From an uncultured Methylomirabilota bacterium (GTDB lineage Bacteria > Methylomirabilota > Methylomirabilia > Methylomirabilales > 2-02-FULL-66-22), in the NCBI GenBank assembly GCA_963705305.1, contig OY970067.1, positions 2,976,001 through 3,040,000 of the forward strand: a DNA stretch of 64,000 nt. The letters are read 5' to 3'. A program made the translations under genes and the position numbers. Below, piece by piece: positions 23,843-46,028 of the stretch. Positions within the stretch are counted from its first letter, which is position 1, and each line of letters opens with the position of its first letter. The notes under the pieces were generated by a model. It was not told where the DNA came from and searched no databases. It saw only the letters and a program-made list of their open reading frames with translations.

Positions 23843-25362
23843 CCCTAATCTCCGGCTAAGAAGTTGAGGGGGATCGCGAATCACGCAGCGGCCCGCAGTG
23901 CGCGCGGCCCGCGGGGTTGGCATCGGCCTTGCTTGGTTTCACCCAGTGGGTGCAAACACCACAAGGAGGAGAGCGATGCCCGACACCTCGCCCCGGTTGC
24001 CGTTCGAGATCGATGACGCGATCGACCCCACGCTGGTCACGGGCCGGGCCGGGGTCCCGCTCGTGATCGAGCTGTTCCGCCAGCTCGGGGTGGCCCAGGC
24101 CGTCGACACCCACGTTGCGGTCAAGCAGCGGCAGCGCGGATTACCCCCCTCGCAGCTCGTGGAGAGTCTCGTCGCGTTGTGGACGAGCGGCGGGGACCGC
24201 TGCCAGGACCTCACGACGCTCCGGGAGGATCAGGCCCTGGCCACGCTGCTCGGCTACCCCCTGCCGGCCGCGACCACGGTCCGGGACTTCCTCGAGGCCT
24301 TCCACGTGGAGGACGGGCCGCTCTGGGTGGCCGGGCCCGCGGCCACGGTCCCCCTGGAGTCCGCCCCCTTGGCGGGCCTCGGACAGGCGAACCGGACGCT
24401 GGTCGCGGGCGTCCAGCGCGGGGCCCGGGCGGCGACGGCCACCCTGGATGTGGACGCGACGCTCGTCGAGAGCCACAAGGACGCGGCGACCGTGGCCTAC
24501 GACGGGACCCGGGGCTACCAGCCCGTCGTGGTCCTCTGGGCCGAGCACGATGTCATCGTGCACGACCAGTTCCGCGATGGCCAGGTGCCCGCCGGGTGCG
24601 GCAACGTGCGCGTCCTCGAACAGGCGGTGGCCAACTTGCCCCAGGGCGTGGACCGCATCTCCCTGCGGGCCGACAGCGCCCTCTACGAGACGGAGGTCCT
24701 CCGCTGGTGCGAGGAGAAGAAAATCGCCTACGCGATTAGCGCCGATATGTCCGCGCAGCTCCAGGCCGAGATCCGGCGCCTCCCCGCGGCCGCCTGGCAG
24801 CTCGAGCGGGAGGAGCCCGAGGCGATCCGGGCCTGGGCCGAAGTCCCCTACGTCCCCGAGGATGGCGATCACCGGAAGGCGCGGCCGTGCGTTCGCCGCT
24901 ACCTCGCGGTGCGTATCCAGCGACGCCAGGGGAGCCTCTTCGCCGACGGGAGTAGCGTGCAGTACTTCGCCGTGGTCACCAATCGGCCGGAGGATGGGCT
25001 CACGATCCTCCGGTGGCACCGGGAGAAAGCAGGGACCATCGAGCACACCCATCACGTCCTCAAGACCGAGCTGGCGGCCGCCGCGCTGCCCAGTGGGAAG
25101 TTCGGGGCGAACGCCGCCTGGTTCCGGCTGAACGTGCTCACCTACAACCTGCTCACCGCGCTCAAGCGGTTGACCTTACCCGGAGATCTCCGGACCGCCC
25201 GGCCGAAGCGTCTCCGGTTCCTGCTGTTCAACACCGTCGGGAAGGTCGTCGCGCATGCCCGACGGACGCTCTTGCGGCTCTCGGGCGCCCTGCAGCACGC
25301 CTTGCTCGTCCGGGCGCGGCGCAAGATCGCCCGGCTGGCCACCGCTTAGCCGGAGATTAGGG
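23843..25362 (+). mobile_element. IS1380-family insertion sequence, copy 2 (transposase 23976-25349)
   Basis: Same length, IRs and translated ORFs as 1659-3178; 5-bp TSD AAGCG (23838-23842, 25363-25367). Confidence 0.93.
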
Positions 25363-25718: not shown

Positions 25719-26636
25719 ATGGGTGATCGACGGCAGGTCCGGGTGCGGGTCCCGGCTACGGCGGCGAACCTCGGCGCAGGGTTCGATGTGCTGGGGATCG
25801 CCCTGGGCCTGTACAACGAGATCGAGGTGGAGATTGAGGGCACCGGGCTGGCCCTGCAGGTTGAGGGGGAGGGGGCCCAGCGGCTGCAGAGCCTGGCGGG
25901 ACGGAATCTCACCGTTCGGGCCGTCTCGACGACCCTCGAGCGGCTGGGGCGTCCGGCCGCCGGCCTGCGGGTGCACATGCGAAATGCGATCCCCCTGAGT
26001 CGGGGCCTGGGCAGCAGCGCCGCCGCCGCGCTGGGCGGCGTGGCGGCGGCGGCAGCGCTCGCGGGGGCGTCCCTGTCCCCGGAGGATCTGCTCGGCCTGG
26101 CGCTGCCCTTCGAAGGGCACCCCGACAACATCACTCCGGCCTTGCTGGGTGGCCTGACGGTGGCCGCCCTGGAAGCGGGGCGGGTGCGGTGTCTCAAGCT
26201 TCCCATCCCCGCCGACGTGAAGGCGATCGCCGTCGTGCCCGACTTTCATCTGCCCACGGTCAAGGCGCGGAAAGTCCTGCCCAGAATGGTGCCCCGCGAG
26301 GATGCGGTGTTCAACGTGGGCCGGGTCGCCCTTTTCCTGGGCGCGATGCAGACCGGCCGCCTGGAGCTTTTGCGCGAGGCCGTACGTGACCGCCTGCATC
26401 AACCCTATCGTGCACCGCTCATTCCCGGCATGGAGGAGGTATTGGCGGAAGGCGAGCGCGCCGGGGCGCTGGCGTGCTTCCTGAGCGGCGCCGGCCCCAC
26501 GCTGTTGGCCCTGGTCGCGGGGGACGAGCAGGAGGTGGGGGCCCGGATGGCGGCCTGCTGGAGGGCGCGGGCCAATATCTCGGCCCGGGCGGAGGTTCTC
26601 TCCATCGACCGGGCGGGACTGCAGGTGGACGGCTAG
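25719..26636 (+). CDS. thrB: Homoserine kinase
   Basis: VPATAANLGAGFD, IPLSRGLGSSAAA, EGHPDN, SGAGPT; GGAGG RBS. Confidence 0.95.
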   Translation: MGDRRQVRVRVPATAANLGAGFDVLGIALGLYNEIEVEIEGTGLALQVEGEGAQRLQSLAGRNLTVRAVSTTLERLGRPAAGLRVHMRNAIPLSRGLGSSAAAALGGVAAAAALAGASLSPEDLLGLALPFEGHPDNITPALLGGLTVAALEAGRVRCLKLPIPADVKAIAVVPDFHLPTVKARKVLPRMVPREDAVFNVGRVALFLGAMQTGRLELLREAVRDRLHQPYRAPLIPGMEEVLAEGERAGALACFLSGAGPTLLALVAGDEQEVGARMAACWRARANISARAEVLSIDRAGLQVDG

Positions 26637-26654
26637 GGCCGGTCGAGACGGGGT

Positions 26655-28128
26655 CTACGGGGCCACCGGAAGATGAACCGTGAAGGCTGTTCCCACACCC
26701 ACCTCGCTCCGCACGTCGATGGTCCCCTTGTGGTCCTCCACGATCCGGTGGGCGATGGCCATGCCGAGACCGAGCCCTTTCTCCTTGGTGGTGTAGAACG
26801 GATCGAAGATCCGCGACAGACGCTCGGGCGGGATACCCTGCCCCGTGTCGGAGATGGTCACACAGACGGCCGGCTCCGGGCGCGTGCCCGCCGGGCGGGA
26901 CACGGCGAACGTCATGGCGGGCACCGATTGCGTCGACAGCTTGAGGTCGCCCCCATTCGGCATGGCCTGCACGGCATTCGACACGAGGTTGCTGAAGCAG
27001 CGGTGGAGGCGCTTGCGATCCACCATCCCGTAGGGCAGATCGGGGTCGAATTCCCGAATGATCTTGATGCCCTGGTTCGTCGCCTGGGTTTCAAACAACT
27101 CCAGGATCTGCGAGAGGATCTCATTCAGGTTCACCGGCTCGAGCTGCACGTTCATCGGCCGTGCCAGCTCCATCATCTCTTCGATGACGGCCTGGACGCG
27201 CTCCAGCTCCCGCGGGACCACCCGGTCGAACTTCTCCCGGACGCTGGGGTCATCATGGTGCATGGACATCAGCTGAGAGAAGATCAGGATCGAGGTGAGG
27301 GGGTTCCGGATATCGTGAGCGATGCCGGCCGCCATCGTCCCCAGGGCGGCCAACCGGTCGGCTCGACGCAGGCGGTCCTCCAGCTCGCGCACGTGGGAGA
27401 GCTGGCGGCTCATCTCGTTGAAGGCGGCCGAGAGCTGGCCGAGCTCGTCGTGGGAATGCACCTCAATCTGCTGGTTGAAATCGCCGCGACCGACGGCGGC
27501 CACGCCCTGGGTGAGGGCCCGAAGAGGCTTGGTAATTCGTTCCGCCAGGACCACGGAACTTAGGCTGGAGAGAAGGACCGCCAAGAGGCCGAAGGCAACG
27601 ATCTGCCATCCGGTCCGTGTGATCTGTTTGTTCATGCCCTCCAGGGACACGCCGATGCGGACCGTTCCCCACCGTTGCGCAGAACCCTCGATCATGACCG
27701 GGACCGCCACATCGTATACGGTCTCGCTATGGGCGCCCGGGATGCTGCGCTGGCGGATCAGCGGTTTGTCCCCAGCCGCCGGCATCTCCTGGTAGTCCTG
27801 GAGAAGGTCCTTTTGGCTCAAGACATTCCGGACGCTGCTCGCGGCAACGTGCCCCTCCTTGTCCAAGACGACGGCGTATACGACGTTCAGCGCTTCTGGT
27901 AGCAACGGCTAGGCTCTGCTCCACTCCCACGTAATTGTATGTGACGAGAGAGTTAGCGCTGGCTTGGGCCAGGCCGCTGGCCAGGATAAGGGCTCGCTTT
28001 CTCACCTCCTCGACAATAGCATTCCGCTGTTCCCTTTGCGCCACGACAGCTGCGCTGCCCACGAGCAACACTACGAGCAGGTTGATGAACAAGATGAGCT
28101 TCGTTCGGATGGGGAGATGGTTGATCAT
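26655..28128 (-). pseudogene. Sensor histidine kinase (TM-periplasmic domain-TM-HAMP-HisKA-HATPase) split by a 1-nt frameshift near 27890-27905
   Basis: ORF from 28128 gives TM1 and the start of the sensor domain. ORF 27905-26655 gives the rest, including HAMP (DELGQL), H-box AHDIRNPL and G-boxes. May be a sequencing error. Confidence 0.8.
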
Positions 28129-28154
28129 GGCGGAACCGCGCCCGTAGGGTGAGC

Positions 28155-29804
28155 CTACTTCTCCTTGTTCCGATCGAACCAGATCCGTTTCATGGGGATA
28201 TAAGGGTCTCCCAGCGCGCTCACCTCGATCCCCCTCACGTAGGGCTGGAAAATCCGCTCGTAGGAATAATAGCTCAGGACTATGAGTGGTGCCAGGTTCA
28301 TAATCTCCCGCTCTGCTTCCTGATAGAGAAGAAGCTTCCTCTGGGTGTCGCTCTCGAAACGGGCCCGCTGCAAGAGGGAGTCGACGGTGCGATTGTGGAG
28401 CTGCGTGAAATTGTCGGAGCTTCGAGAGTCGAACAGCTGTCCCAGGAACGTTTCGGGATCCGGCGTGTCAGCGTACCAACTGTACCGGAAGATCGGCAGC
28501 TTTCCCGCGTAGACCCCGGCATGGTATTCGGGCCAGTTTGTGTTGTAATGGATCTCTGCGTGAATTCCCACGGCAGCCAAGTACTTGATGATGGTCTGGT
28601 GCTCGGCCACAGCCTCGTCGTTCTTCCGCGCCGACCAAATATGAATGACCGGCAGGCCCTTTCCGCCCGGGTAGCCGGCAGCGGCCAAGAGGTCGGCTGA
28701 TTTTTTGGGATCGTAAGGATAGCCGACGAGATTTGGATCATAGCCGTAGGTGCCGGGCGGAAGAATCCCAGCAGCAGGGAGGTACTGGTCGTCATAGATC
28801 TCGTGCATGAGCCTGCGGCGGTCGATCGCGTAATTGATCGCTTGGCGAACCCGCGGATCGTCGAGGGGTTTCGTGGTGGTGTTGATCCCCAAGAAGGAGA
28901 TACCAAGAATGGGGCGACGGATGAACTGGTACCTTCGATCATTAAGCAGTTGCGTGCGCATTCGTGCTGGAATGCCTGAGTCCTCGAGATTCCCGCGCTC
29001 AAACTCTTCGAACATTTTGTCGAGGTTTTCGCCGGTGAAGATCCTGTACTCCAGCCGGTTGAGCTTCGGGGGCCCCTCGAAATAATCCCGATTGGCCGAT
29101 AGGACAATCTCCTTGTTCCGGACCCATCTGACAAACTTGAAGGGTCCTGTGCCCACGGGCTCCTGCCCAAAACGATCGCCCAAGCTTTTTACCACCTCTT
29201 GCGGGACGACCTTCGCGAAGCCGACAGCCAGCGAAGCGACGAAGGGCGACTGAGACTCTGTCAGAGTGATCCGAAGGGTTAGCGGATCGAGAGCCTCCAG
29301 GCCCTCCACACGGCTGGCGCGTCCCTCAGCGAACTCCCTGGCTCCTTTGATTTTCATGAAAAGGGTGGCGCCTGCGGATTTGGTTGCGGGATCCACGATG
29401 CGGGTGAAAGAGTATACGAAGTCCTGCGCGGTCACGTCCCGCCCGTTGTGGAATTTCACCCCCTTCTTTAGCTTGAAGGTCCACACCAATCCGTCGCGCG
29501 AGGCTGTCCATGTCTCGGCGATGGCAGGCTTTATGCCGAGAGCACCGTCGAATTGAACGAGCCCGTCGAAGAGTTGGTTGGCAATGGTACGACCGTAGAT
29601 GTCGTTGGGGCGAGCGGGATCCAGGGTTACCGGATCAGTCGCCAACGGACGACGGTAGGTGTCACCTTGGTGCTCGTCTCCGGACCGGACGAATGCCTCC
29701 CCACCCACGGCAGGGCAGGGAGGTACCCCTAAGGCGGCGACAAACGCCAACAAGAAGGCGATCTTCCAGCGCCGGAAGTCACACCACGATGATCTAGGAA
29801 CCAC
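28155..29804 (-). CDS. Family-5 (OppA/DppA-like) solute-binding protein with no adjacent permease or ATPase
   Basis: TLDPA, LFDGLV, WTFKLKKGVKFHNG..VTAQD, PVGTGPF, VRQAINYAID; N-terminal signal peptide. Confidence 0.92.
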   Translation of the reverse strand: MVPRSSWCDFRRWKIAFLLAFVAALGVPPCPAVGGEAFVRSGDEHQGDTYRRPLATDPVTLDPARPNDIYGRTIANQLFDGLVQFDGALGIKPAIAETWTASRDGLVWTFKLKKGVKFHNGRDVTAQDFVYSFTRIVDPATKSAGATLFMKIKGAREFAEGRASRVEGLEALDPLTLRITLTESQSPFVASLAVGFAKVVPQEVVKSLGDRFGQEPVGTGPFKFVRWVRNKEIVLSANRDYFEGPPKLNRLEYRIFTGENLDKMFEEFERGNLEDSGIPARMRTQLLNDRRYQFIRRPILGISFLGINTTTKPLDDPRVRQAINYAIDRRRLMHEIYDDQYLPAAGILPPGTYGYDPNLVGYPYDPKKSADLLAAAGYPGGKGLPVIHIWSARKNDEAVAEHQTIIKYLAAVGIHAEIHYNTNWPEYHAGVYAGKLPIFRYSWYADTPDPETFLGQLFDSRSSDNFTQLHNRTVDSLLQRARFESDTQRKLLLYQEAEREIMNLAPLIVLSYYSYERIFQPYVRGIEVSALGDPYIPMKRIWFDRNKEK

Positions 29805-30552
29805 CGATCATTCCCTCCCTGCAAAGCGAATACGCGACAAGCGCCAGGACATCATGCACACCTATGCGTACCGGGGCACCGATCATGCGAGCGGTGGGTG
29901 AAATGTCCGTCGTGGCCGCGGCAGGGAATCCATCGTAAGCCTGAGTCTGCGACCTTGTCACAACCTCCTCGCTACTACCGCCGTGCACCTGCGAAGCCAG
30001 CAGGGGTCATGGCGGACACTTCTTCGGACACACTCTGACAACTAATAAAAGGTTGTCAAGATAAATTCACGGGGGTTGAACGCATCTGAACTGATTACAT
30101 TGTGACAGGGAGGAAACAGGGGGGACCCAATTCCTCGCCGGCGCCTCAGTCAGATGGTGGGCGCGCGCGTCCTGCGGTTCGGAATCTCGAAGTGATGAGC
30201 GAGCCACGGATGGCGAGAAAGCCGAGCGGGAAGGGTAGACGGCAGAAACAGTAGCCGGAGTTGCTTGGCCGGCTTCATTCTTGGGGAAACCCCACTTGGT
30301 TCTTCAGGGGCACTCGCCCGCCCCCGGCGTCAAAGGGGACGACAACTCGAACCGCCGAAGGGGGGCGGAATGCAGAGCGGAGCCCTTGAAGATAAGGTGT
30401 CCGCTCAAGTCTAGCCTTTCGTCCATGGACCAGTTGGCGTCGAGGCTGTTGTAGCGTTGGCGCAAGCATCCGACCGGGAGGTCGGAGAGTTGACTGGACT
30501 GCTGGCTGGTAGGCCGCCGGAGAACGAGGTATTTTTCGTGCGCACTAAACAC

Positions 30553-30583
30553 AAAAAGGGGATGAGGCTCACGCCTCATCCCC
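30553..30583 (-). terminator. Intrinsic terminator of the small peptide gene
   Basis: Minus strand GGGGATGAGGC-GTGA-GCCTCATCCCC followed by TTTTT. Confidence 0.85.
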
Positions 30584-30619
30584 GGAAGTGTCGAGTATGC
30601 TGATGTGAACTCGGTCAGG

Positions 30620-30742
30620 CTACATGCCCCCTTCGGCAAAACCGGTGCGGCTGAACACCTGGGTATTGGACTGCACTTCCATCGCCGGAACGATCGCGAG
30701 GAGGCCGATCACCACCAGCACCAGGACGATGATCTTCTTCAT
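30620..30742 (-). CDS. 40-aa secreted peptide precursor MKKIIVLVLVVIGLLAIVPAMEVQSNTQVFSRTGFAEGGM (absent from the ORF track)
   Basis: AAAAGGAG RBS 8 nt before ATG, Sec-type signal peptide, high-GC3 codons in an AT-richer spacer, own promoter and terminator. Confidence 0.85.
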   Translation of the reverse strand: MKKIIVLVLVVIGLLAIVPAMEVQSNTQVFSRTGFAEGGM

Positions 30743-30833
30743 GACGGTTTCTCCTTTTGTTCGATTTGAGATTTCCAATAAGTCCATCTTGACTCAGTTT
30801 TCGGCGTTTCGCTGTTCTCTGGGCCGGAAGTAA

Positions 30834-30849
30834 AGCAGGGCGTATGCCA
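30834..30849 (-). promoter_or_regulatory. sigma54 (-24/-12) promoter
   Basis: Minus strand TGGCATACGCCCTGCT (GG-N10-GC), about 90 bp upstream of the peptide ATG; adjacent gene is a GAFTGA activator. Confidence 0.75.
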
Positions 30850-30937
30850 TAGCAAAGCAAAAGAGGCGGGAGGTTCGGAAATTCCTGATCAATAAAGGAG
30901 TTAACCCTTTATGGAGTAGGCTAGTGCGGAATACGTG

Positions 30938-30957
30938 TTGCCTAAATTTTTAGGCAA
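30938..30957. promoter_or_regulatory. Palindromic candidate enhancer (UAS)
   Basis: TTGCCTAAA-TT-TTTAGGCAA, about 90-110 bp upstream of the -24 box; IHF-like AATAAAGGAGTTA (30891-30903) lies in between. Confidence 0.6.
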
Positions 30958-31082
30958 GTAATTGTGACAGGATCAAGGATGTATTGAGAAAAACGCTCTA
31001 ACATTCTTTTCTGAAAGGACTTATCGCAACCTTAGATTTTTTGTGCAATGTGCATAAGGAATTGAGCGACGGTGGGTTTGGC

Positions 31083-32489
31083 CTAAGGGGTGGGAACATG
31101 CTGGCGGGATTCGATACCGAGACGTTGGAGCTTCCAGAGCAGGGTGTTTCGATGCAAGCCGAGGACGCGGGCGGCCTCGCTTTGGTTCCACTGAACCTTC
31201 TCCAGGATGCTGAGGATGTATTGCCGCTCGAAGTGATTCCTGGCCTCGCGCAGGCTGAGCCCATTCTTCTGGGTCCGCTCGATCACGTCGTGGCCCAGAA
31301 TGGAGAGGTCCAGGGGGAGCTCTCGCAGAGAGATGGTCTCGCTCTGCGCCAGGGCCACCGCCCGCTCGATGACATTCTCCAGCTCGCGGACGTTGCCGGG
31401 CCAGTCGTATTGGTAGAGGGCCGCCGTGGCCCCGGCGGAAAAACCCCGGACGTGGCGATTGAATTCCCGGTTGTATTTGGCGATGAAGTGCTCGACCAGG
31501 AGCGGGATGTCGTCCCGGCGATGGCGCAGCGGGGGCAGGGTGATGGGGATGACATTCAACCGGTAGTACAGATCCTCCCGGAAGCTCCCCTCCTCCACGG
31601 CCTTCTTCAGGTCCCGGTTGGTGGCGGCGATGACCCGGACGTCGATCTTGATGGTCCGGGTCCCCCCCACCCGCTCGATCTCCCGCTCCTGGAGGGCGCG
31701 GAGGATCTTCGCCTGGAGGTCCAGGCGCATGGAGCCCACCTCGTCCAGGAACAGGCTCCCCCCGGTGGCGAGCTCGAACTTCCCCACCTTGGTGGCGATG
31801 GCCCCGGTGAAGGCCCCCTTCTCATGGCCGAACAGCTCCGACTCCAGGAGCTCGGAGGGGATGGCGGCGCAGTTGACGGCGACGAACAGCCGCTGGGCGC
31901 GGTGGCTCTGCTGGTGGATGGCGCGCGCCAGCACCTCTTTGCCGGTGCCGCTCTCGCCGCTGAGCAGGATCGTGGCGTTGTTGTCGGCGATACGGGAGAT
32001 GAGCGCGTAGATCTCCTGCATGCGGGAGTTGCGTCCCACCAGATTCTCAAAGCGGCGTTCCCGCGCCACTTCGGATCGGAGGTACAGCACCTCCTTCACC
32101 AGCTCCTGTTTCTCGACCACTCGCTTGATGAGGGCCAGGATCTCGTGGACATCGAACGGCTTCGTGATGTAATCGGTGGCGCCCAGCTTGATGGCCTCGA
32201 CCGCCGTCTTGAGGGATTTGACCGCCGTCACCACGACGACATCGGTCTGGTCGCTGAGCTCTCGGATCCGGCGGAGCACTTCGATGCCGTCCATGCCGGG
32301 CATGCGGATGTCGAGCAGAACCAGATTGACGTCCTGCGTGCTCAAGATGCGAAGGGCCTCCGGGCCGCTCGCGGCGAAAAGGAGCTCGTAGTCCTTGGAG
32401 AGCACGGCCTCGAAGGATTCCCGGACACCGATGTCGTCGTCCACCACCAGGACGCTTGGGCAAACGGATTGTGCCTCGCCGTTTGACAT
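31083..32489 (-). CDS. sigma54-dependent response regulator (NtrC/AtoC family)
   Basis: REC domain (VVDDD, LLDIRMP), GESGTGKE, ESELFGHEKGAFTGA, WPGNVREL, Fis-type HTH. Confidence 0.96.
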   Translation of the reverse strand: MSNGEAQSVCPSVLVVDDDIGVRESFEAVLSKDYELLFAASGPEALRILSTQDVNLVLLDIRMPGMDGIEVLRRIRELSDQTDVVVVTAVKSLKTAVEAIKLGATDYITKPFDVHEILALIKRVVEKQELVKEVLYLRSEVARERRFENLVGRNSRMQEIYALISRIADNNATILLSGESGTGKEVLARAIHQQSHRAQRLFVAVNCAAIPSELLESELFGHEKGAFTGAIATKVGKFELATGGSLFLDEVGSMRLDLQAKILRALQEREIERVGGTRTIKIDVRVIAATNRDLKKAVEEGSFREDLYYRLNVIPITLPPLRHRRDDIPLLVEHFIAKYNREFNRHVRGFSAGATAALYQYDWPGNVRELENVIERAVALAQSETISLRELPLDLSILGHDVIERTQKNGLSLREARNHFERQYILSILEKVQWNQSEAARVLGLHRNTLLWKLQRLGIESRQHVPTP

Positions 32490-32688
32490 GCCGTCTTCCT
32501 CCGCGGATCCCCCCTGGCCGGTGTCGGGGCCGCGACGATCCACCCGGAAGATAGGCCGTCTGACCTCCCCGGGATTAGGGCCTACGTAGCCCAAACGGCA
32601 GGGGTTGTCAAGCCTAAAGCCCTCGCCCGGCGCGCCTTGACAAGGGGTGCATAGTGTGCGACGGTCGGCTCGTCTCGCGGAAGGCGGT

Positions 32689-34521
32689 ATGGACGTCCAG
32701 GAAAAAATCCGTAGTCTGCCCGATGCGCCCGGTGTGTACCTGTTCAAGGACAGCCGGGGTGCACTCCTGTACATCGGCAAGGCCGTCTCCCTGCGGAAGC
32801 GGGTCCAGTCTTACTTCAGCGATCGCGATTTCGGCTATGATGCGGGGCGGCTGCAGGCCATGGTCGCCCAGGTCGCCGAGCTGGAATACCTGCTCACCGC
32901 CAACGAGTTGGAAGCGCTGATCCTCGAGAGCAATCTCATCAAGGAGCGGCGCCCACGCTACAACATCGTCCTGCGCGACGACAAGCACTACCCCTTCATT
33001 CGCCTCAACCCAAAGGACCCGTTTCCTGCCCTCCAGGTGGTCCGGCGGATCAAGAGCGATGGAGCGCTCTACTTCGGCCCGTACGTGCCGGCGGGGGTCA
33101 TGTGGGACCTCTTGGCGCTCATCCATCGCACGTTTCCGCTGCGGACCTGCCGAAGCATCGCTGGCCGCACCCGGTGTCTGGAGTACCACCTGGGCCGGTG
33201 CCTGGCCCCCTGCGAAGGGCTGATCAACCGGGAGGAGTACGCCGAGATCGTCCAGAAGGTGCGGCTGGTCCTGGAGGGCAAAGACGGCGAAGTGGTCCGT
33301 CAGCTCCAGCAGCAGATGCACGAGGCGGCCGAGCGGCTGGAATACGAGCGGGCGGCCGGGATCCGGGACCAGATCGCGTCGCTGGAGCAGGCGGGGGAAG
33401 GGCAGCGCGCGATCTCTCCGCGCGGCGAGGATCAGGACGTCTTCGGAGTGGTCCAGGAAGGAGACGAAGTCCAGATTCAGCTGCTGGTGGTGCGGAGCGG
33501 GAAACTCATCGGGCGCGATAGCTTTGCCTTCGAGGGGGTGCCGGCCGAAGGCTCTTCCGGCGTCCTGGGGTCCCTGGTGGCCCAGTACTACCTGGGCGCC
33601 CGCGCCATTCCCAAGACGCTCTTGACCTCCACGCTCCCCGCAGAGAAGGAGCTTCTGGCGGCCATGCTGTCAGAGCGGGCCGGCCACCCGGTGGGGATCC
33701 GGGTGCCCGAGCGGGGACCCAAAGCCCACCTGGTGGAGATGGCGGTGGGCAACGCCCGCGCGATCATGACGCAGAACCTGGCGTCCACGGGCGCGCGGGA
33801 GCGGGCCATGGCCGAGGTTCGGGAAGCGCTCAATCTGCCGCGACTTCCCCGGCGGATCGAGTGCGCCGACATTTCGAACATCTCGGGGGTGCTGGCGGTC
33901 GGCTCTCTCGTCACGTTTGTGAACGGGCAGCCCCGCCGCGGGGACTACAAGCGGTTCCGGATCGGGACCGTCGAGGGGGCGGATGACTACGCCATGCTGC
34001 GAGAAGTTCTGCGCCGCCGCTTCGACCGATCGGATTGGGTGCTCCCCGATCTCCTTGTGCTCGACGGGGGGCGGGGACAGCTGAACGTGGGGGTCCTGGC
34101 GGCCAGGGAGGCGGGCATCCCGGATCTCCCGTTGGCCGGTCTGGCCAAGGAAGAGGAGCTCGTCTTCCGCCCCGGCCGGCCAGATCCCATCCGGCTGCCA
34201 GACGGATCGCGAGGTAAGCACCTGCTGCAACAGGTGCGGGACGAGGCCCACCGATTCGGTCTGGCCTACCACCGTGTGCTGCGGGGTAAGACCGGCCTGC
34301 GATCGGTTCTGGACGAGGTCCCGGGAATCGGCCCCCGGCGAAAGCGACTGCTGCTGCAGCGATTTGGAAGTCTCAAACGACTGCAGGCGGCCACCGCCGA
34401 AGAGCTGCAGAGAATCGGCGGTCTCCCGCCGCGGGTGGCCGAGGCCGCCCGGCGCATGCTCGCCTCCGTTCGGCCGGGAGGGAGTCGGGCCGAGGAGAAT
34501 CCCGGCGCTCCGTCCCGGTGA
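32689..34521 (+). CDS. uvrC: Excinuclease ABC subunit C
   Basis: GIY-YIG (PGVYLF..LYIGKA), DGGRGQL, RDEAHRF, HhH. Confidence 0.96.
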   Translation: MDVQEKIRSLPDAPGVYLFKDSRGALLYIGKAVSLRKRVQSYFSDRDFGYDAGRLQAMVAQVAELEYLLTANELEALILESNLIKERRPRYNIVLRDDKHYPFIRLNPKDPFPALQVVRRIKSDGALYFGPYVPAGVMWDLLALIHRTFPLRTCRSIAGRTRCLEYHLGRCLAPCEGLINREEYAEIVQKVRLVLEGKDGEVVRQLQQQMHEAAERLEYERAAGIRDQIASLEQAGEGQRAISPRGEDQDVFGVVQEGDEVQIQLLVVRSGKLIGRDSFAFEGVPAEGSSGVLGSLVAQYYLGARAIPKTLLTSTLPAEKELLAAMLSERAGHPVGIRVPERGPKAHLVEMAVGNARAIMTQNLASTGARERAMAEVREALNLPRLPRRIECADISNISGVLAVGSLVTFVNGQPRRGDYKRFRIGTVEGADDYAMLREVLRRRFDRSDWVLPDLLVLDGGRGQLNVGVLAAREAGIPDLPLAGLAKEEELVFRPGRPDPIRLPDGSRGKHLLQQVRDEAHRFGLAYHRVLRGKTGLRSVLDEVPGIGPRRKRLLLQRFGSLKRLQAATAEELQRIGGLPPRVAEAARRMLASVRPGGSRAEENPGAPSR

Positions 34522-44051: not shown

Positions 44052-46028
44052 GTGACGGATCGTGTAGGGTTTGAGGCGGCACCGCTGCGGCTCGAGACTC
44101 GACGGGGCGCGGTTGCGGCGCAACGCTGGCGGAGCTTGGCGGAGGCGGCCGGGCAGGCCGCAGAGCGGGCCGCGCGGACTCTCCTTCGCCTGCAAGGGCC
44201 GGAGGGGCTCTGGTGTGGTGACCTGCTGGCGGACGTGACCCTGGAGGCCGACTACGTCCTTGTGCAGCTCTGGTGCCACCCCCCGTCCGGGAGTGCGTGG
44301 CGGCCGCCGACGTGGAGCCGCATCCAGAAGGCATGCGCCACCATCCTGGACCGTCAGTTGCCGGATGGCGGCTTCACCATCTACCCGGGCGGGCCGGCCG
44401 ACATCAATGCCAGCGTGAAGGCGTACACGGCACTGAAGCTCGCCGGCGCGGCCGTCGAAAGCGGTCCCCTCAAGCGGGCGCAGCAGCGTATTCTGGAGCT
44501 GGGGGGCATCCAGGCTGCCAACAGTTACGTCAGGATCAACCTCAGCCTCTTCGGTCTGTACCCGCGGCGGTACGCCCCATCCATCCCGCCCGAGCTCATG
44601 CTCTTGCCTGGAAACGTCCTGTATCAGATGTCGTCCTGGACCCGGACCATCGTGGTCCCCCTGTCCATCGTCCAATCCAAGGCGGGGCTGCGGCCCGTTC
44701 CCCCCGGCTTCAATCTCGAGGAGCTGGTGGCTCCCGGCAAGAGCTTCCGCCCGCCCAGGCGAGACGCGGTCTCGATCCTCTTTCACCAATTGGACCGCAC
44801 CTTCAAGCTCTGGGAGCACCGCGGCCCGGAAGACATCCGGCGCATGGCCCTGCGGGAGGCGGAGAAGTGGATGCTCGACCGCACCCGCTACAGCAAGGGC
44901 CTGGGGGCCATCTATCCATCCATGATGTACCTGGTCATGGCGCTGGATGCGCTGGGGTACCCGGAGGATCATCCGGACATGATCGAGGCGGTGCGGCAGT
45001 TCGAGGCCCTCCTGACCGAGACGGCCGACCGGCTCTATTTCCAGCCCTGTTTCTCGCCGGTGTGGGACACGGCCTACGCCATGTTCGCGCTGGGAGAAAT
45101 GGGAGCGGGAGGCTCCGAGGCGCTGAGCCGCTCGGCGGACTGGCTCATCCGGAAGGAGGTGCGCCACCGGGGAGACTGGTCCGTCAAGCGGCCGAACCTG
45201 GAGCCCTCCGGCTGGGCCTTCGAGTTTTCCAACGAGCATTACCCCGACATCGACGACACGGCCATGGTCCTGCTGGCCCTCCTACACGGGCAGGCGCCGG
45301 AAGCCGAGGCCCAGCGGCGCTGCGAGCAGCGCGCCCTGCACTGGCTGCTCAACATGCAGTCGAGTGACGGCGGATGGGCGGCCTTCGACGTGGATAACAA
45401 CTGGGCCATCCTGACCAAGGTGCCCTTCGCGGACCACAACGCCATGCTGGACCCGACCTGCCCGGACGTCACCGGGCGGGTCCTGGAGGCGCTCTGTCGC
45501 CGCGGCTGCAGCCTGGCCGACCCGGCGGTGCGAAGAGGGGTGAACTACCTCCTCCGGCAGCAGGAGCGAAACGGCAGCTGGTTCGGCCGCTGGGGGGTCG
45601 ACTATCTCTACGGCACCTTCCTGGCCTTGCGCGGCCTGCAAGCGGCGCAGGCCGCTGATGCCATGGACGCGGTGCGGAAGGCCGCCCGCTGGCTCGCCTC
45701 GGTTCAGAACTCCGACGGCGGCTGGGGCGAGAGCTGCGCCAGCTACGTGCACAACCGCTTCGTGGGGGCCGCCAGCACCCCGTCGCAAACGGCCTGGGCG
45801 CTCTTGGGGCTTCTCGCCGCCGGCCCCAGCGCCTCCTCCGAGAGCCTGGAGCGCGGTGTCCGGCACCTGGTCGATACCCAGGGGGCGGATGGGACCTGGG
45901 ACGAGGAATCGGCGACCGGGACCGGCTTCCCCAACGTCTTCTACCTTCAGTATACGATGTACCGCATATACTTCCCGCTCTTGGCGCTCACCTTGGCGAA
46001 GCGGACGCTGGAGGGGCATCCGGCCTAG
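44052..46028 (+). CDS. shc: Squalene-hopene cyclase
   Basis: YPDIDDTA (DxDD), SPVWDT, multiple QW repeats, TGFP..FYL.Y..YR.YFPL. Start at 43986 or 44052. Confidence 0.93.
   Translation: MTDRVGFEAAPLRLETRRGAVAAQRWRSLAEAAGQAAERAARTLLRLQGPEGLWCGDLLADVTLEADYVLVQLWCHPPSGSAWRPPTWSRIQKACATILDRQLPDGGFTIYPGGPADINASVKAYTALKLAGAAVESGPLKRAQQRILELGGIQAANSYVRINLSLFGLYPRRYAPSIPPELMLLPGNVLYQMSSWTRTIVVPLSIVQSKAGLRPVPPGFNLEELVAPGKSFRPPRRDAVSILFHQLDRTFKLWEHRGPEDIRRMALREAEKWMLDRTRYSKGLGAIYPSMMYLVMALDALGYPEDHPDMIEAVRQFEALLTETADRLYFQPCFSPVWDTAYAMFALGEMGAGGSEALSRSADWLIRKEVRHRGDWSVKRPNLEPSGWAFEFSNEHYPDIDDTAMVLLALLHGQAPEAEAQRRCEQRALHWLLNMQSSDGGWAAFDVDNNWAILTKVPFADHNAMLDPTCPDVTGRVLEALCRRGCSLADPAVRRGVNYLLRQQERNGSWFGRWGVDYLYGTFLALRGLQAAQAADAMDAVRKAARWLASVQNSDGGWGESCASYVHNRFVGAASTPSQTAWALLGLLAAGPSASSESLERGVRHLVDTQGADGTWDEESATGTGFPNVFYLQYTMYRIYFPLLALTLAKRTLEGHPA

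Follow-up and report, generated by a model that had tools for sequence, protein, structure and literature searches.

A candidate peptide autoinduction module pairing a solute-binding protein with a sensor kinase in Methylomirabilota

Gene content and organization of the locus

We analyzed a 64,000-nucleotide stretch of DNA (hereafter the window) from an uncultured Methylomirabilota bacterium, whose genome is a single contig of 5.6 Mb and encodes sigma-54 (rpoN). Our subject is a module of 4 genes on its minus strand, encoding an NtrC-type sigma-54 enhancer-binding response regulator (the activator), a small putative prepeptide, an orphan solute-binding protein (SBP), and a sensor histidine kinase (HK). 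An earlier reading of this DNA (the original prediction) had proposed that these 4 co-oriented genes form a peptide autoinduction circuit, and all of them were found at the coordinates it gave, on the minus strand.

The activator gene (32489..31083, minus strand) encodes 468 aa with a receiver domain (REC), an AAA+ domain, and HTH_8, and the corresponding Pfam matches were Response_reg (PF00072, 2.4e-30), Sigma54_activat (PF00158, 7.6e-74), and HTH_8 (PF02954, 8.3e-11). The GAFTGA motif was read in the AAA+ part of the translation, and a receiver, a sigma-54 interaction domain, and a Fis-type helix-turn-helix together make this an NtrC-type protein, as had been claimed. The small gene (30742..30620, minus strand) encodes 40 aa, MKKIIVLVLVVIGLLAIVPAMEVQSNTQVFSRTGFAEGGM. 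The SBP gene (29804..28155, minus strand; 549 aa) encodes a signal peptide and a DppA/OppA-like, family-5 protein matching SBP_bac_5 (PF00496, 4.2e-90). The kinase gene (28128..26655, minus strand) has its ATG 26 nt after the SBP stop, a gap previously counted as 27 bp. Its Pfam architecture comprises sCache_3_2 between 2 transmembrane (TM) segments, followed by HAMP, HisKA, and HATPase_c, which bears out the periplasmic domain and HAMP attributed to it.

The locus is flanked by uvrC (32647-34521, plus strand) and by thrB (ending at 26636, plus strand). This synteny was kept in relatives, with the position of the module between uvrC and thrB constant throughout the genus, and uvrC also adjoined the module in 2 loci of family f5 that had that flank on the contig. 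Genes for an ABC permease or ATPase were absent next to the SBP in the window locus and at the uvrC and thrB flanks of the relatives, in line with the SBP without permease or ATPase that had been described. In family f9, the genes 3' of the module were a hybrid kinase gene and an unrelated branched-chain-type permease gene on the opposite strand. Between uvrC and thrB we found no processing or export genes of the AgrB or ComAB type and no immunity or modification genes, and neither a TPR receptor nor an Opp permease of the RRNPP type was present in the locus. The module is a self-contained and chromosomally fixed unit, in the order ntrC, sigma-54 promoter, peptide gene (1 to 5 tandem copies), SBP, and HK.

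Promoter, palindromes, and terminator

The promoter and terminator claimed for the 40-aa open reading frame (ORF) were both located. A sigma-54-type -24/-12 element, TGGCATACGCCCTGCT, lies at 30849..30834 (minus strand), 92 nt before the peptide ATG, and an intrinsic terminator (30583..30548, minus strand) consists of an 11-bp stem (30583..30558) and a T run. The -24/-12 pattern matched 4 times in the window vs 0.19 expected from shuffles. The first peptide copy had such a site on its 5' side in 12 of 12, 15 of 16, and 17 of 17 loci, in 3 locus sets that overlap in part. At the level of sequence, the features of a sigma-54 promoter (GG/GC at -24/-12, upstream sites, and rpoN) are present.

Two palindromes occupy the region between the activator and the promoter. 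Palindrome 1, TTATGCACATTGCACAA (31057..31041, minus strand), is a candidate activator site just past the activator stop; in relatives it reads TTGTGCA-N3-TGCACAA and forms a conserved column block in an alignment of 11 upstream regions, and the 5.6-Mb genome contains a single exact match to its 14-mer pattern. Palindrome 2, TTGCCTAAAAATTTAGGCAA (30957..30938, minus strand), has the form TGC-N12-GCA with an A/T core and is a candidate second activator site or bending-protein site; it was kept in relatives and had no second copy in the genome with as many as 4 mismatches allowed. The TGCAC-type palindromes in the relatives' loci lie 100-200 bp above the -24/-12 site, and such elements are typical of enhancer-binding-protein sites. 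Of 407 loose sigma-54-like sites in the genome, 2 had such a palindrome 40-320 bp upstream, with the peptide promoter being the better one. Because both palindromes are unique in the genome and only these 2 of 407 sites are comparable, the peptide gene looks like the main, and perhaps the only, target of the adjacent activator. A perfect palindrome, TGTGCAACCTGCACA, at genome position 3,643,629 lies inside overlapping ORFs in a densely coding region, with no good sigma-54 site near it, and was taken as a chance occurrence.

Relatives that carry the same type of peptide as the window (type A, defined below) have the same terminator hairpin, GGGGATGAGGC..GCCTCATCCCC, after the peptide gene. In the window, a long spacer (30547..29805, minus strand) separates this terminator from the SBP, and the distance from peptide to SBP is 815 bp vs 173-473 bp after the last peptide copy in relatives. 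The window spacer is about 550-600 bp longer than those of the relatives and has a lower G+C content (50-59%). The segment 29805-30619 was not repeated elsewhere in the genome and, past the terminator, matched nothing in relatives, and an Rfam scan of 26000-33000 at E up to 1 gave no match.

Elsewhere in the window, TGGCACCAGAGCTGCA at 44263-44278 (minus strand) was another -24/-12 match. A DDE_Tnp_1_4 transposase ORF (23898-25349, plus strand) lies between a proC-like gene and thrB, and the 16-mer TGGCATCGGCCTTGCT within its start (23918-23933) recurs at 1734-1749. Because of this recurrence, the 2 sigma-54-like matches to TGGCATCGGCCTTGCT are probably 2 insertion sequence copies and not promoters.

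Coding evidence, conservation, and spread of the peptide gene

The window peptide begins with MKK, followed by a 15-residue hydrophobic stretch, invariant P19 and E22, and a tail ending in ..STQVFSRTGFAEGGM. A Shine-Dalgarno sequence (AAAGGAG) lies 5' of its ORF, and a strong one precedes each copy in relatives. Across the class, the peptide keeps a short basic N-terminus, a hydrophobic stretch of 15-19 residues that is conserved in character only, the invariant Pro and Glu, and a tail of the form (S)STQVF-x-x-[IV]G-x-A-[DE]-GGG.. whose last residue is variable. Differences at first, second, and third codon positions numbered 366/77/851 in the genus and 189/118/566 in family f9. Because third-position differences dominate, we read the small ORF as a protein-coding gene under selection, and judged by these patterns it is a conserved one.

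Homologous loci were fetched with the SBP as the handle from same-genus and same-order genomes, and an ORF of 40-44 aa of the same family was identified in 11 of 11 loci with the activator-SBP spacer on the contig, in 1, 2 (G013), or 3 (G005) copies per locus. The scan proposed along with the original prediction, for a small ORF behind a GG-N10-GC promoter in homologous SBP, HK, and NtrC loci, thus recovered the ORF in every readable spacer, an outcome in favor of that prediction. A profile of the genus peptides gave weak matches in other families of the class. In 16 of 16 inspected loci with such matches, the peptide was flanked by homologues of the activator (54-64% identical) and of the SBP (51-58%) or, at a contig end, had one of them beside it, and its placement in 18 longer stretches was likewise marked by activator and SBP homologues. 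The order NtrC-peptide-SBP-HK was also present in every further locus inspected in 3 other families.

With a cut-off of E up to 1e-5, a broader peptide profile matched 129 of 251 genomes of the phylum (Methylomirabilota, including records named Rokubacteria); among high-quality genomes it matched 58 of 104, and matches were present in 45 of 68 genera. The unpublished genomes G075 and G217 are counted here, and G028 is counted in the SBP-based genus tally. At least 1853 clusters in a large protein collection, 22-79 aa in length, matched the peptide, and among the 120 listed clusters there was no Pfam domain and the sole name was "hypothetical protein." A protein-language-model search placed a PapR cluster at rank 7 (score 0.77), which we treat as a lead only.

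Copy number and spacing differed among families. In family f10, 4-5 tandem, nonidentical peptide copies lie behind one promoter (L096:2539-3539, L097:2569-3427, and L098:2365-3161), with tails holding Cys or Ser, G[ND]A[CS]D(S)GGGGGW, and with 2 of the L097 copies frameshifted. Only 12-25 bp separate the peptide stop from the SBP start in family f9, which makes it probable that the peptide, SBP, and kinase genes of that family share one sigma-54 operon. The arrays of 2-5 copies behind one promoter, together with the type-A terminator before the SBP, indicate that the peptide is probably made in excess of the sensor.

The recurrence of this arrangement bears on whether the genes belong together at all. 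The small ORF could in principle be a conserved neighbor with an unrelated role, or untranslated, with the 4 genes merely lying side by side, and the only sequencing run found, which is of DNA and in which 0.18 of sampled words matched, leaves room for such a view. We consider this extremely unlikely, since the same gene order and promoter recurred in every locus inspected, covering at least 5 families, the codon-position pattern is that of selection on a protein, a Shine-Dalgarno sequence stands before each copy, and the locus is flanked by unrelated housekeeping genes.

Matches of the peptide pattern in Kordia and Bacteroidales (L046 and L047) had no SBP, kinase, or activator alongside and were taken as signal-peptide look-alikes. 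A 7-kb contig in a record titled as an Anaerolineales bacterium metagenome-assembled genome (MAG) (L041) carries a type-A module with housekeeping parts nearly identical to those of the genus genome G020, and is probably Methylomirabilota DNA binned in error, not a case of transfer to Chloroflexota.

The binding protein and its candidate ligand

The nearest solved chains to the SBP are peptide binders, led by 8upi (5.7e-72) and followed by HbpA, DppA, OppA, and MppA, and the OppA-type PrgZ (4faj) was also among the matches. Residue D446, within W-Y-A-D, lines up with the Asp in the G-W-T-G-D motif of DppA and was invariant in 24 of 24 SBP orthologues. In DppA and OppA, this Asp anchors the free amino terminus of the peptide ligand. 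The window SBP also has an Arg aligned with the DppA Arg that presumably holds the peptide carboxylate, and this residue was not conserved in the family. By these matches, the SBP falls within the predicted peptide-binding type of family 5 (DppA/OppA cluster).

Co-folding of the SBP with the peptide, as suggested with the original prediction, was run with SBP residues 41-549, peptide residues 11-40, and an alignment of 24 rows for each. The pair scored 0.59 vs 0.06 for the best control and so passed a mark reached by 116 of 157 solved complexes and by 2 of 215 mismatched pairs. Scores of at most 0.60 were obtained for 18 of those 157 solved complexes and for both mismatches that passed, and the result was graded as weak support. 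Runs agreed in at least 53% of contacts, with a partner pLDDT of at least 40. Because many SBP-peptide complexes have already been solved, the pass may come from model memory. The C-terminal fragment FAEGGM is a possible mature form of the peptide.

These features allow a second reading of the small protein, in which it remains anchored in the membrane by a single pass and serves the kinase as an accessory or feedback subunit, in the way that MgrB serves PhoQ, with the SBP binding its short periplasmic tail or an unrelated ligand. Its hydrophobic segment of 15-19 residues follows lysines and has no obvious cleavage site, the f9 genes lie only 12-25 bp from each other, as might those for the parts of a single complex, and a regulator-induced small membrane protein that feeds back on the kinase is an established design (MgrB-PhoQ). 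We nevertheless consider this reading quite improbable: the arrays of 2-5 copies and the type-A terminator between peptide and SBP imply far more peptide than sensor, the hydrophobic part keeps its character only while the tail keeps its sequence, as expected of a signal peptide with a functional exported part, and the invariant SBP Asp, if it holds a free amino terminus as in DppA and OppA, fits a released peptide better.

Two further observations concern the SBP family. In 3 loci, L094 (G010), L095 (G006), and L083 (G226), the SBP gene is broken by stops or frameshifts and the peptide, activator, and kinase are kept, which would reflect either receptor decay or MAG sequence errors. On a second contig of G013 (L027:5809-8616, minus strand), a paralogous SBP, 64% identical to that of the window, is followed by a dCache_1/sCache_3_2 protein, with no peptide gene or NtrC-type activator beside it. 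Pairing with Cache sensors may be a wider property of this SBP subfamily.

The sensor kinase

The SBP and kinase genes were adjacent in all loci, and the SBP and the kinase sensor co-diverge. The original prediction had implied a broken kinase in need of repair, and the window gene is indeed interrupted by one additional A at 27886/27887 (GAAC vs GAC in 5 relatives), which gives a +1 frameshift; the relatives' kinases are intact and in frame. A public short-read contig over 27752-28003 was identical to the window for 251 bases except that the extra A was absent (1 contig at a depth of about 3, from the DNA run mentioned above, the only run with part of the stretch). The frameshift is therefore probably an assembly error (or a rare variant), for which reason the window module should not be treated as dead. 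Other single-base indels may be present in the single-contig assembly of the window.

In family f9, the module kinase carries an additional PAS domain, and a soluble hybrid kinase (HisKA-HATPase_c-receiver) directly follows it (L089:7150-8487, plus strand, with equivalents in L078, L081, L082, L084, L085, and L090). This hybrid kinase may be a branch to further outputs.

Two cassette types in the genus

We identified 2 types of the module in the genus that differ in the peptide tail, with G[FL]A[ED]GG-x in all 8 type-A loci (the window and 7 others) and GMAE[SG]..GGG[DE] in all 7 type-B loci. Identity to the window of the SBP was 76-81% for type A and 48-59% for type B, and that of the sensor part of the kinase was 63-66% and 44-50%, respectively. 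The remaining parts of the locus showed no difference between the types, with identities for types A and B, respectively, of 85-88% and 85-90% in the activator, 70-80% and 72-75% in the cytoplasmic part of the kinase, 77-78% and 75-78% in UvrC, and 71-76% and 69-75% in ThrB.

The trees repeated this division. In a tree of SBP and sensor, each type formed one side of a 100/100 branch, and in a tree of the kinase cytoplasmic part and ThrB the types were interleaved, with 4 changes needed and the starred branches forcing at least 3. A tree keeping type A together was rejected (AU p 5.6e-42), a p-value that is descriptive, as the groups were named from the peptide tails after the identity table had been seen.

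Pairs of close relatives of opposite type placed the breakpoints. Between G013 (type A) and G014 (type B), nucleotide identity was 87-99% in the uvrC and activator genes and 66-79% in the intergenic region between them, 44-70% from the activator stop to about kinase residue 225, and 87-97% in the remaining kinase and 90-97% in thrB. Between G020 (type A) and G016 (type B), the corresponding values were 91-94% for uvrC and the activator, 39-75% from the activator stop to about kinase residue 225, and 75-91% for the rest. Binning errors are irrelevant to these breakpoints, because the pair comparisons stay within single contigs. The variable block thus spans about 3.3 kb, covering the promoter region, peptide, SBP, and kinase sensor, and its types are interleaved among species. 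Because the position of the locus is constant in the genus and the breakpoints are sharp, we interpret the cassette, as judged from these comparisons, as an allelic replacement at a fixed locus whose unit is the promoter region, peptide, SBP, and kinase sensor. The agr and comCD pherotype loci show this same cassette pattern, and by analogy with peptide pheromone systems the diverged and exchanged cassettes suggest specificity groups.

The cassette pattern also bears on a third reading, in which the peptide is an output only. The SBP and kinase would sense an external ligand (an environmental or cell-wall peptide, or a nonpeptide), and the activator would induce, without feedback, an exported effector peptide that is bacteriocin-like, envelope-active, or metal-binding. 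Under that reading the peptide, whose promoter is the only genome site with the conserved palindromes, would look like the sole product, and the arrays of up to 5 variant copies resemble precursor arrays of bacteriocins or ribosomally synthesized and post-translationally modified peptides (RiPPs). The weak co-fold grade would be unsurprising, and family-5 proteins bind many ligands, as in CBP-ChiS with chitin oligosaccharides (Table 1 of PMC8050422). Left unexplained, however, are the change of the peptide tail with SBP and kinase-sensor type (8 of 8 and 7 of 7 loci) and the class-wide position of the peptide gene at the head of the sensor operon. In its high conservation, shortness, abundance of glycine, and uncharged to acidic character, the tail is unlike typical antimicrobial peptides, which are cationic, and immunity, export, and modification genes are absent from the locus. 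On balance, we regard the output-only role as unlikely.

Proposed mechanism and its weight

We propose that the small gene encodes a Sec-type prepeptide whose tail would reach the periplasmic side, where it would be cut by signal peptidase and possibly trimmed further, or left tethered. The tail would be the cognate ligand of the orphan DppA/OppA-like SBP, the loaded SBP would dock on the single-Cache sensor domain of the kinase, and the kinase would set the phosphorylation state of the NtrC-type activator. The activator would then bind the upstream palindromes and drive the sigma-54 promoter of the peptide gene, giving an autoregulatory loop; in most lineages the whole peptide-SBP-HK operon is probably transcribed from that promoter. 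The outward-facing parts (peptide tail, SBP, and kinase sensor) would be deeply diverged allelic cassettes exchanged between species.

The proposal starts from what was observed directly, namely how the genes are ordered, the promoter with its palindromes, the conservation of the module, selection on the coding sequence, and the cassette pattern. Our main reading is that the outward-facing parts co-operate and co-evolve, with the tail as SBP ligand, the SBP as ligand-binding subunit of the Cache kinase, and the activator closing the loop, and we assign it a probability of about 0.5. Functional coupling is supported by the class-wide conservation, the unique palindromes, a cassette covering exactly these parts, the invariant Asp, and the weak co-fold. 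Of the autoinduction circuit in the original prediction, comparative evidence thus favors the coupling of peptide, SBP, and kinase sensor, whereas export, SBP-peptide binding, SBP-kinase contact, the direction of the feedback, and any cell-to-cell role are inferred. We regard the module as a variant of peptide autoinduction and of SBP-coupled two-component signaling, for which the predicted mechanism is plausible and partly supported by the sequence comparisons.

Several points weigh against this proposal. The difference between A and B peptides is small (1 residue and a C-terminal extension of 2-4 residues), and because it is small and the cassette includes the noncoding promoter region, the peptide gene could have traveled, through physical linkage alone, with an SBP-kinase pair that co-evolves. 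Among the loci read in family f9, the 2 tail variants (..GTA[DE]GGGG-aromatic and ..GNA[DE]GG.GG-acidic) sort by genus, and for that reason they are not taken as further evidence for types. Neither query recovered the module in 6 of 20 genus genomes, and the peptide profile matched 0 of 15 genomes in family f4 and 0 of 20 in f7. Release from the membrane is uncertain, as 15-19 hydrophobic residues are followed by the invariant Pro with no clean A-x-A site common to all families. The co-fold support, as noted, was graded weak. A peptide of 15-20 residues would not pass ordinary outer-membrane porins, which weakens a cell-to-cell role unless the peptide is trimmed (or has a channel). A loop with the peptide promoter as its only target would have no output, and in that case either the peptide itself would be the effector or other targets were missed by our strict patterns. 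The uniqueness of the palindromes therefore cuts both ways, tying the activator to the peptide and yet calling for a further role of the peptide if the loop has no other output.

Whether the peptide travels between cells is accordingly a question on which we lean toward doubt. Pherotype-diversified peptide quorum sensing in uncultivated diderm soil bacteria, with an unmodified, ribosomally made peptide that is exported by Sec and probably trimmed to a short glycine-rich C-terminal fragment, recapture by the SBP, sigma-54 self-induction, and private groups arising through the cassettes, is likewise a tentative extension that we hold to be possible rather than probable.

Implications

Gene-encoded peptide signaling is textbook knowledge for Firmicutes and is rare and contested in diderm bacteria. 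The 4-gene module would join such signaling with SBP-dependent kinase sensing, and it is widespread in a major uncultivated soil phylum. New here is an interleaved 2-type cassette, comprising promoter region, peptide, SBP, and kinase sensor, with the evolutionary signature of specificity groups. As the parts are small and the sigma-54 promoters usable in standard hosts, the hypothesis can be tested without culturing the organisms. If true, it would offer orthogonal peptide-sensor pairs, a first handle on social behavior in Rokubacteria-type bacteria, and a peptide-signal receptor architecture that we did not find described in the literature searched.

Comparison with known systems

The original prediction knew of no described peptide system with this architecture, and our full-text literature searches, most subscription journals being beyond their reach, found no description of it either. 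Table 1 of a 2021 review (PMC8050422) gives 9 SBP-kinase systems, with the kinases LuxQ, LytS, TorS, HptS, VirA, AioS, BctE, ChiS, and GtrS, all of which are entered in that table as sensing small molecules and none with a gene-encoded peptide ligand; it includes 1 family-5 SBP (CBP) and 1 sCache-like sensor (AioS).

In AioX-AioS-AioR of Agrobacterium and others, a transporter-less SBP gene adjoins a kinase with an sCache-like sensor, as in our module (PMC8050422, Table 1 and Fig. 2 legend). The system differs in that AioX is a protein of the phosphonate-binding family with As(III) as its ligand, an oxidase operon is what the system controls, and there is no gene-encoded ligand, autoinduction, or allelic cassette. 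Its response regulator, AioR, is a sigma-54 activator. CBP-ChiS (Vibrio) and DppA-Tap (Escherichia coli) each use an SBP_bac_5 protein to signal to a membrane sensor whose ligand-binding domain is Cache-like or 4-helix (PMC8050422, Table 1), as proposed for our module. Unlike the module, they have SBPs that also serve ABC transporters, no sigma-54 activator, and ligands that are chitin oligosaccharides or dietary dipeptides rather than a locus-encoded peptide. LuxP-LuxQ, the quorum-sensing receptor for AI-2, and TorT-TorS likewise use a dedicated transporter-less SBP as ligand-binding subunit of the kinase (PMC8050422, Table 1), but their ligands are enzyme-made small molecules and their SBP families and regulators are others.

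Small envelope proteins encoded with, or induced by, a two-component system also modulate the kinase in MgrB-PhoQ and QseG-QseE-QseF. MgrB and QseG are single-copy and have no paired SBP, and we know of no allelic cassettes for them. QseF is described as a sigma-54 activator in PMC6075780. The RRNPP systems (Phr-Rap, PapR-PlcR, AimP-AimR, and PrgQ/PrgZ) resemble the module in having signal-peptide prepeptides of about 40-50 aa that yield short C-terminal signals, and in capture by OppA-type proteins; their peptides, however, are imported by Opp permeases onto cytoplasmic TPR receptors, whereas here the SBP is paired with a kinase. With neither permease nor TPR receptor in the locus, the module was not placed among the RRNPP systems.

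AgrBDCA, ComCDE, and PlnABCD or SppIP-K-R are peptide-pheromone 3-component modules of Firmicutes. They have the small peptide as first gene of an autoinduced operon with its kinase, a hypervariable cassette of peptide and kinase-sensor half between conserved flanks, and pherotypes interleaved among strains or species. At the sequence level, the Methylomirabilota module has 2 of their features, a gene-encoded, predicted exported peptide in a kinase operon and an interleaved putative specificity cassette. The Agr and Com systems, however, have a processing-export enzyme (AgrB or ComAB), and their peptide binds the kinase directly; here there is no such enzyme, the N-terminus is Sec-type and not a double-glycine or Agr leader, a periplasmic SBP is interposed, the regulator is a sigma-54 activator, and the host phylum is diderm. 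Because it lacks a processing or export enzyme and has an SBP interposed, we did not file the module under Agr/Com, of which it would be a functional analogue at most. By its logic the module appears closest to the Firmicute peptide 3-component modules, and by its parts closest to AioXSR.

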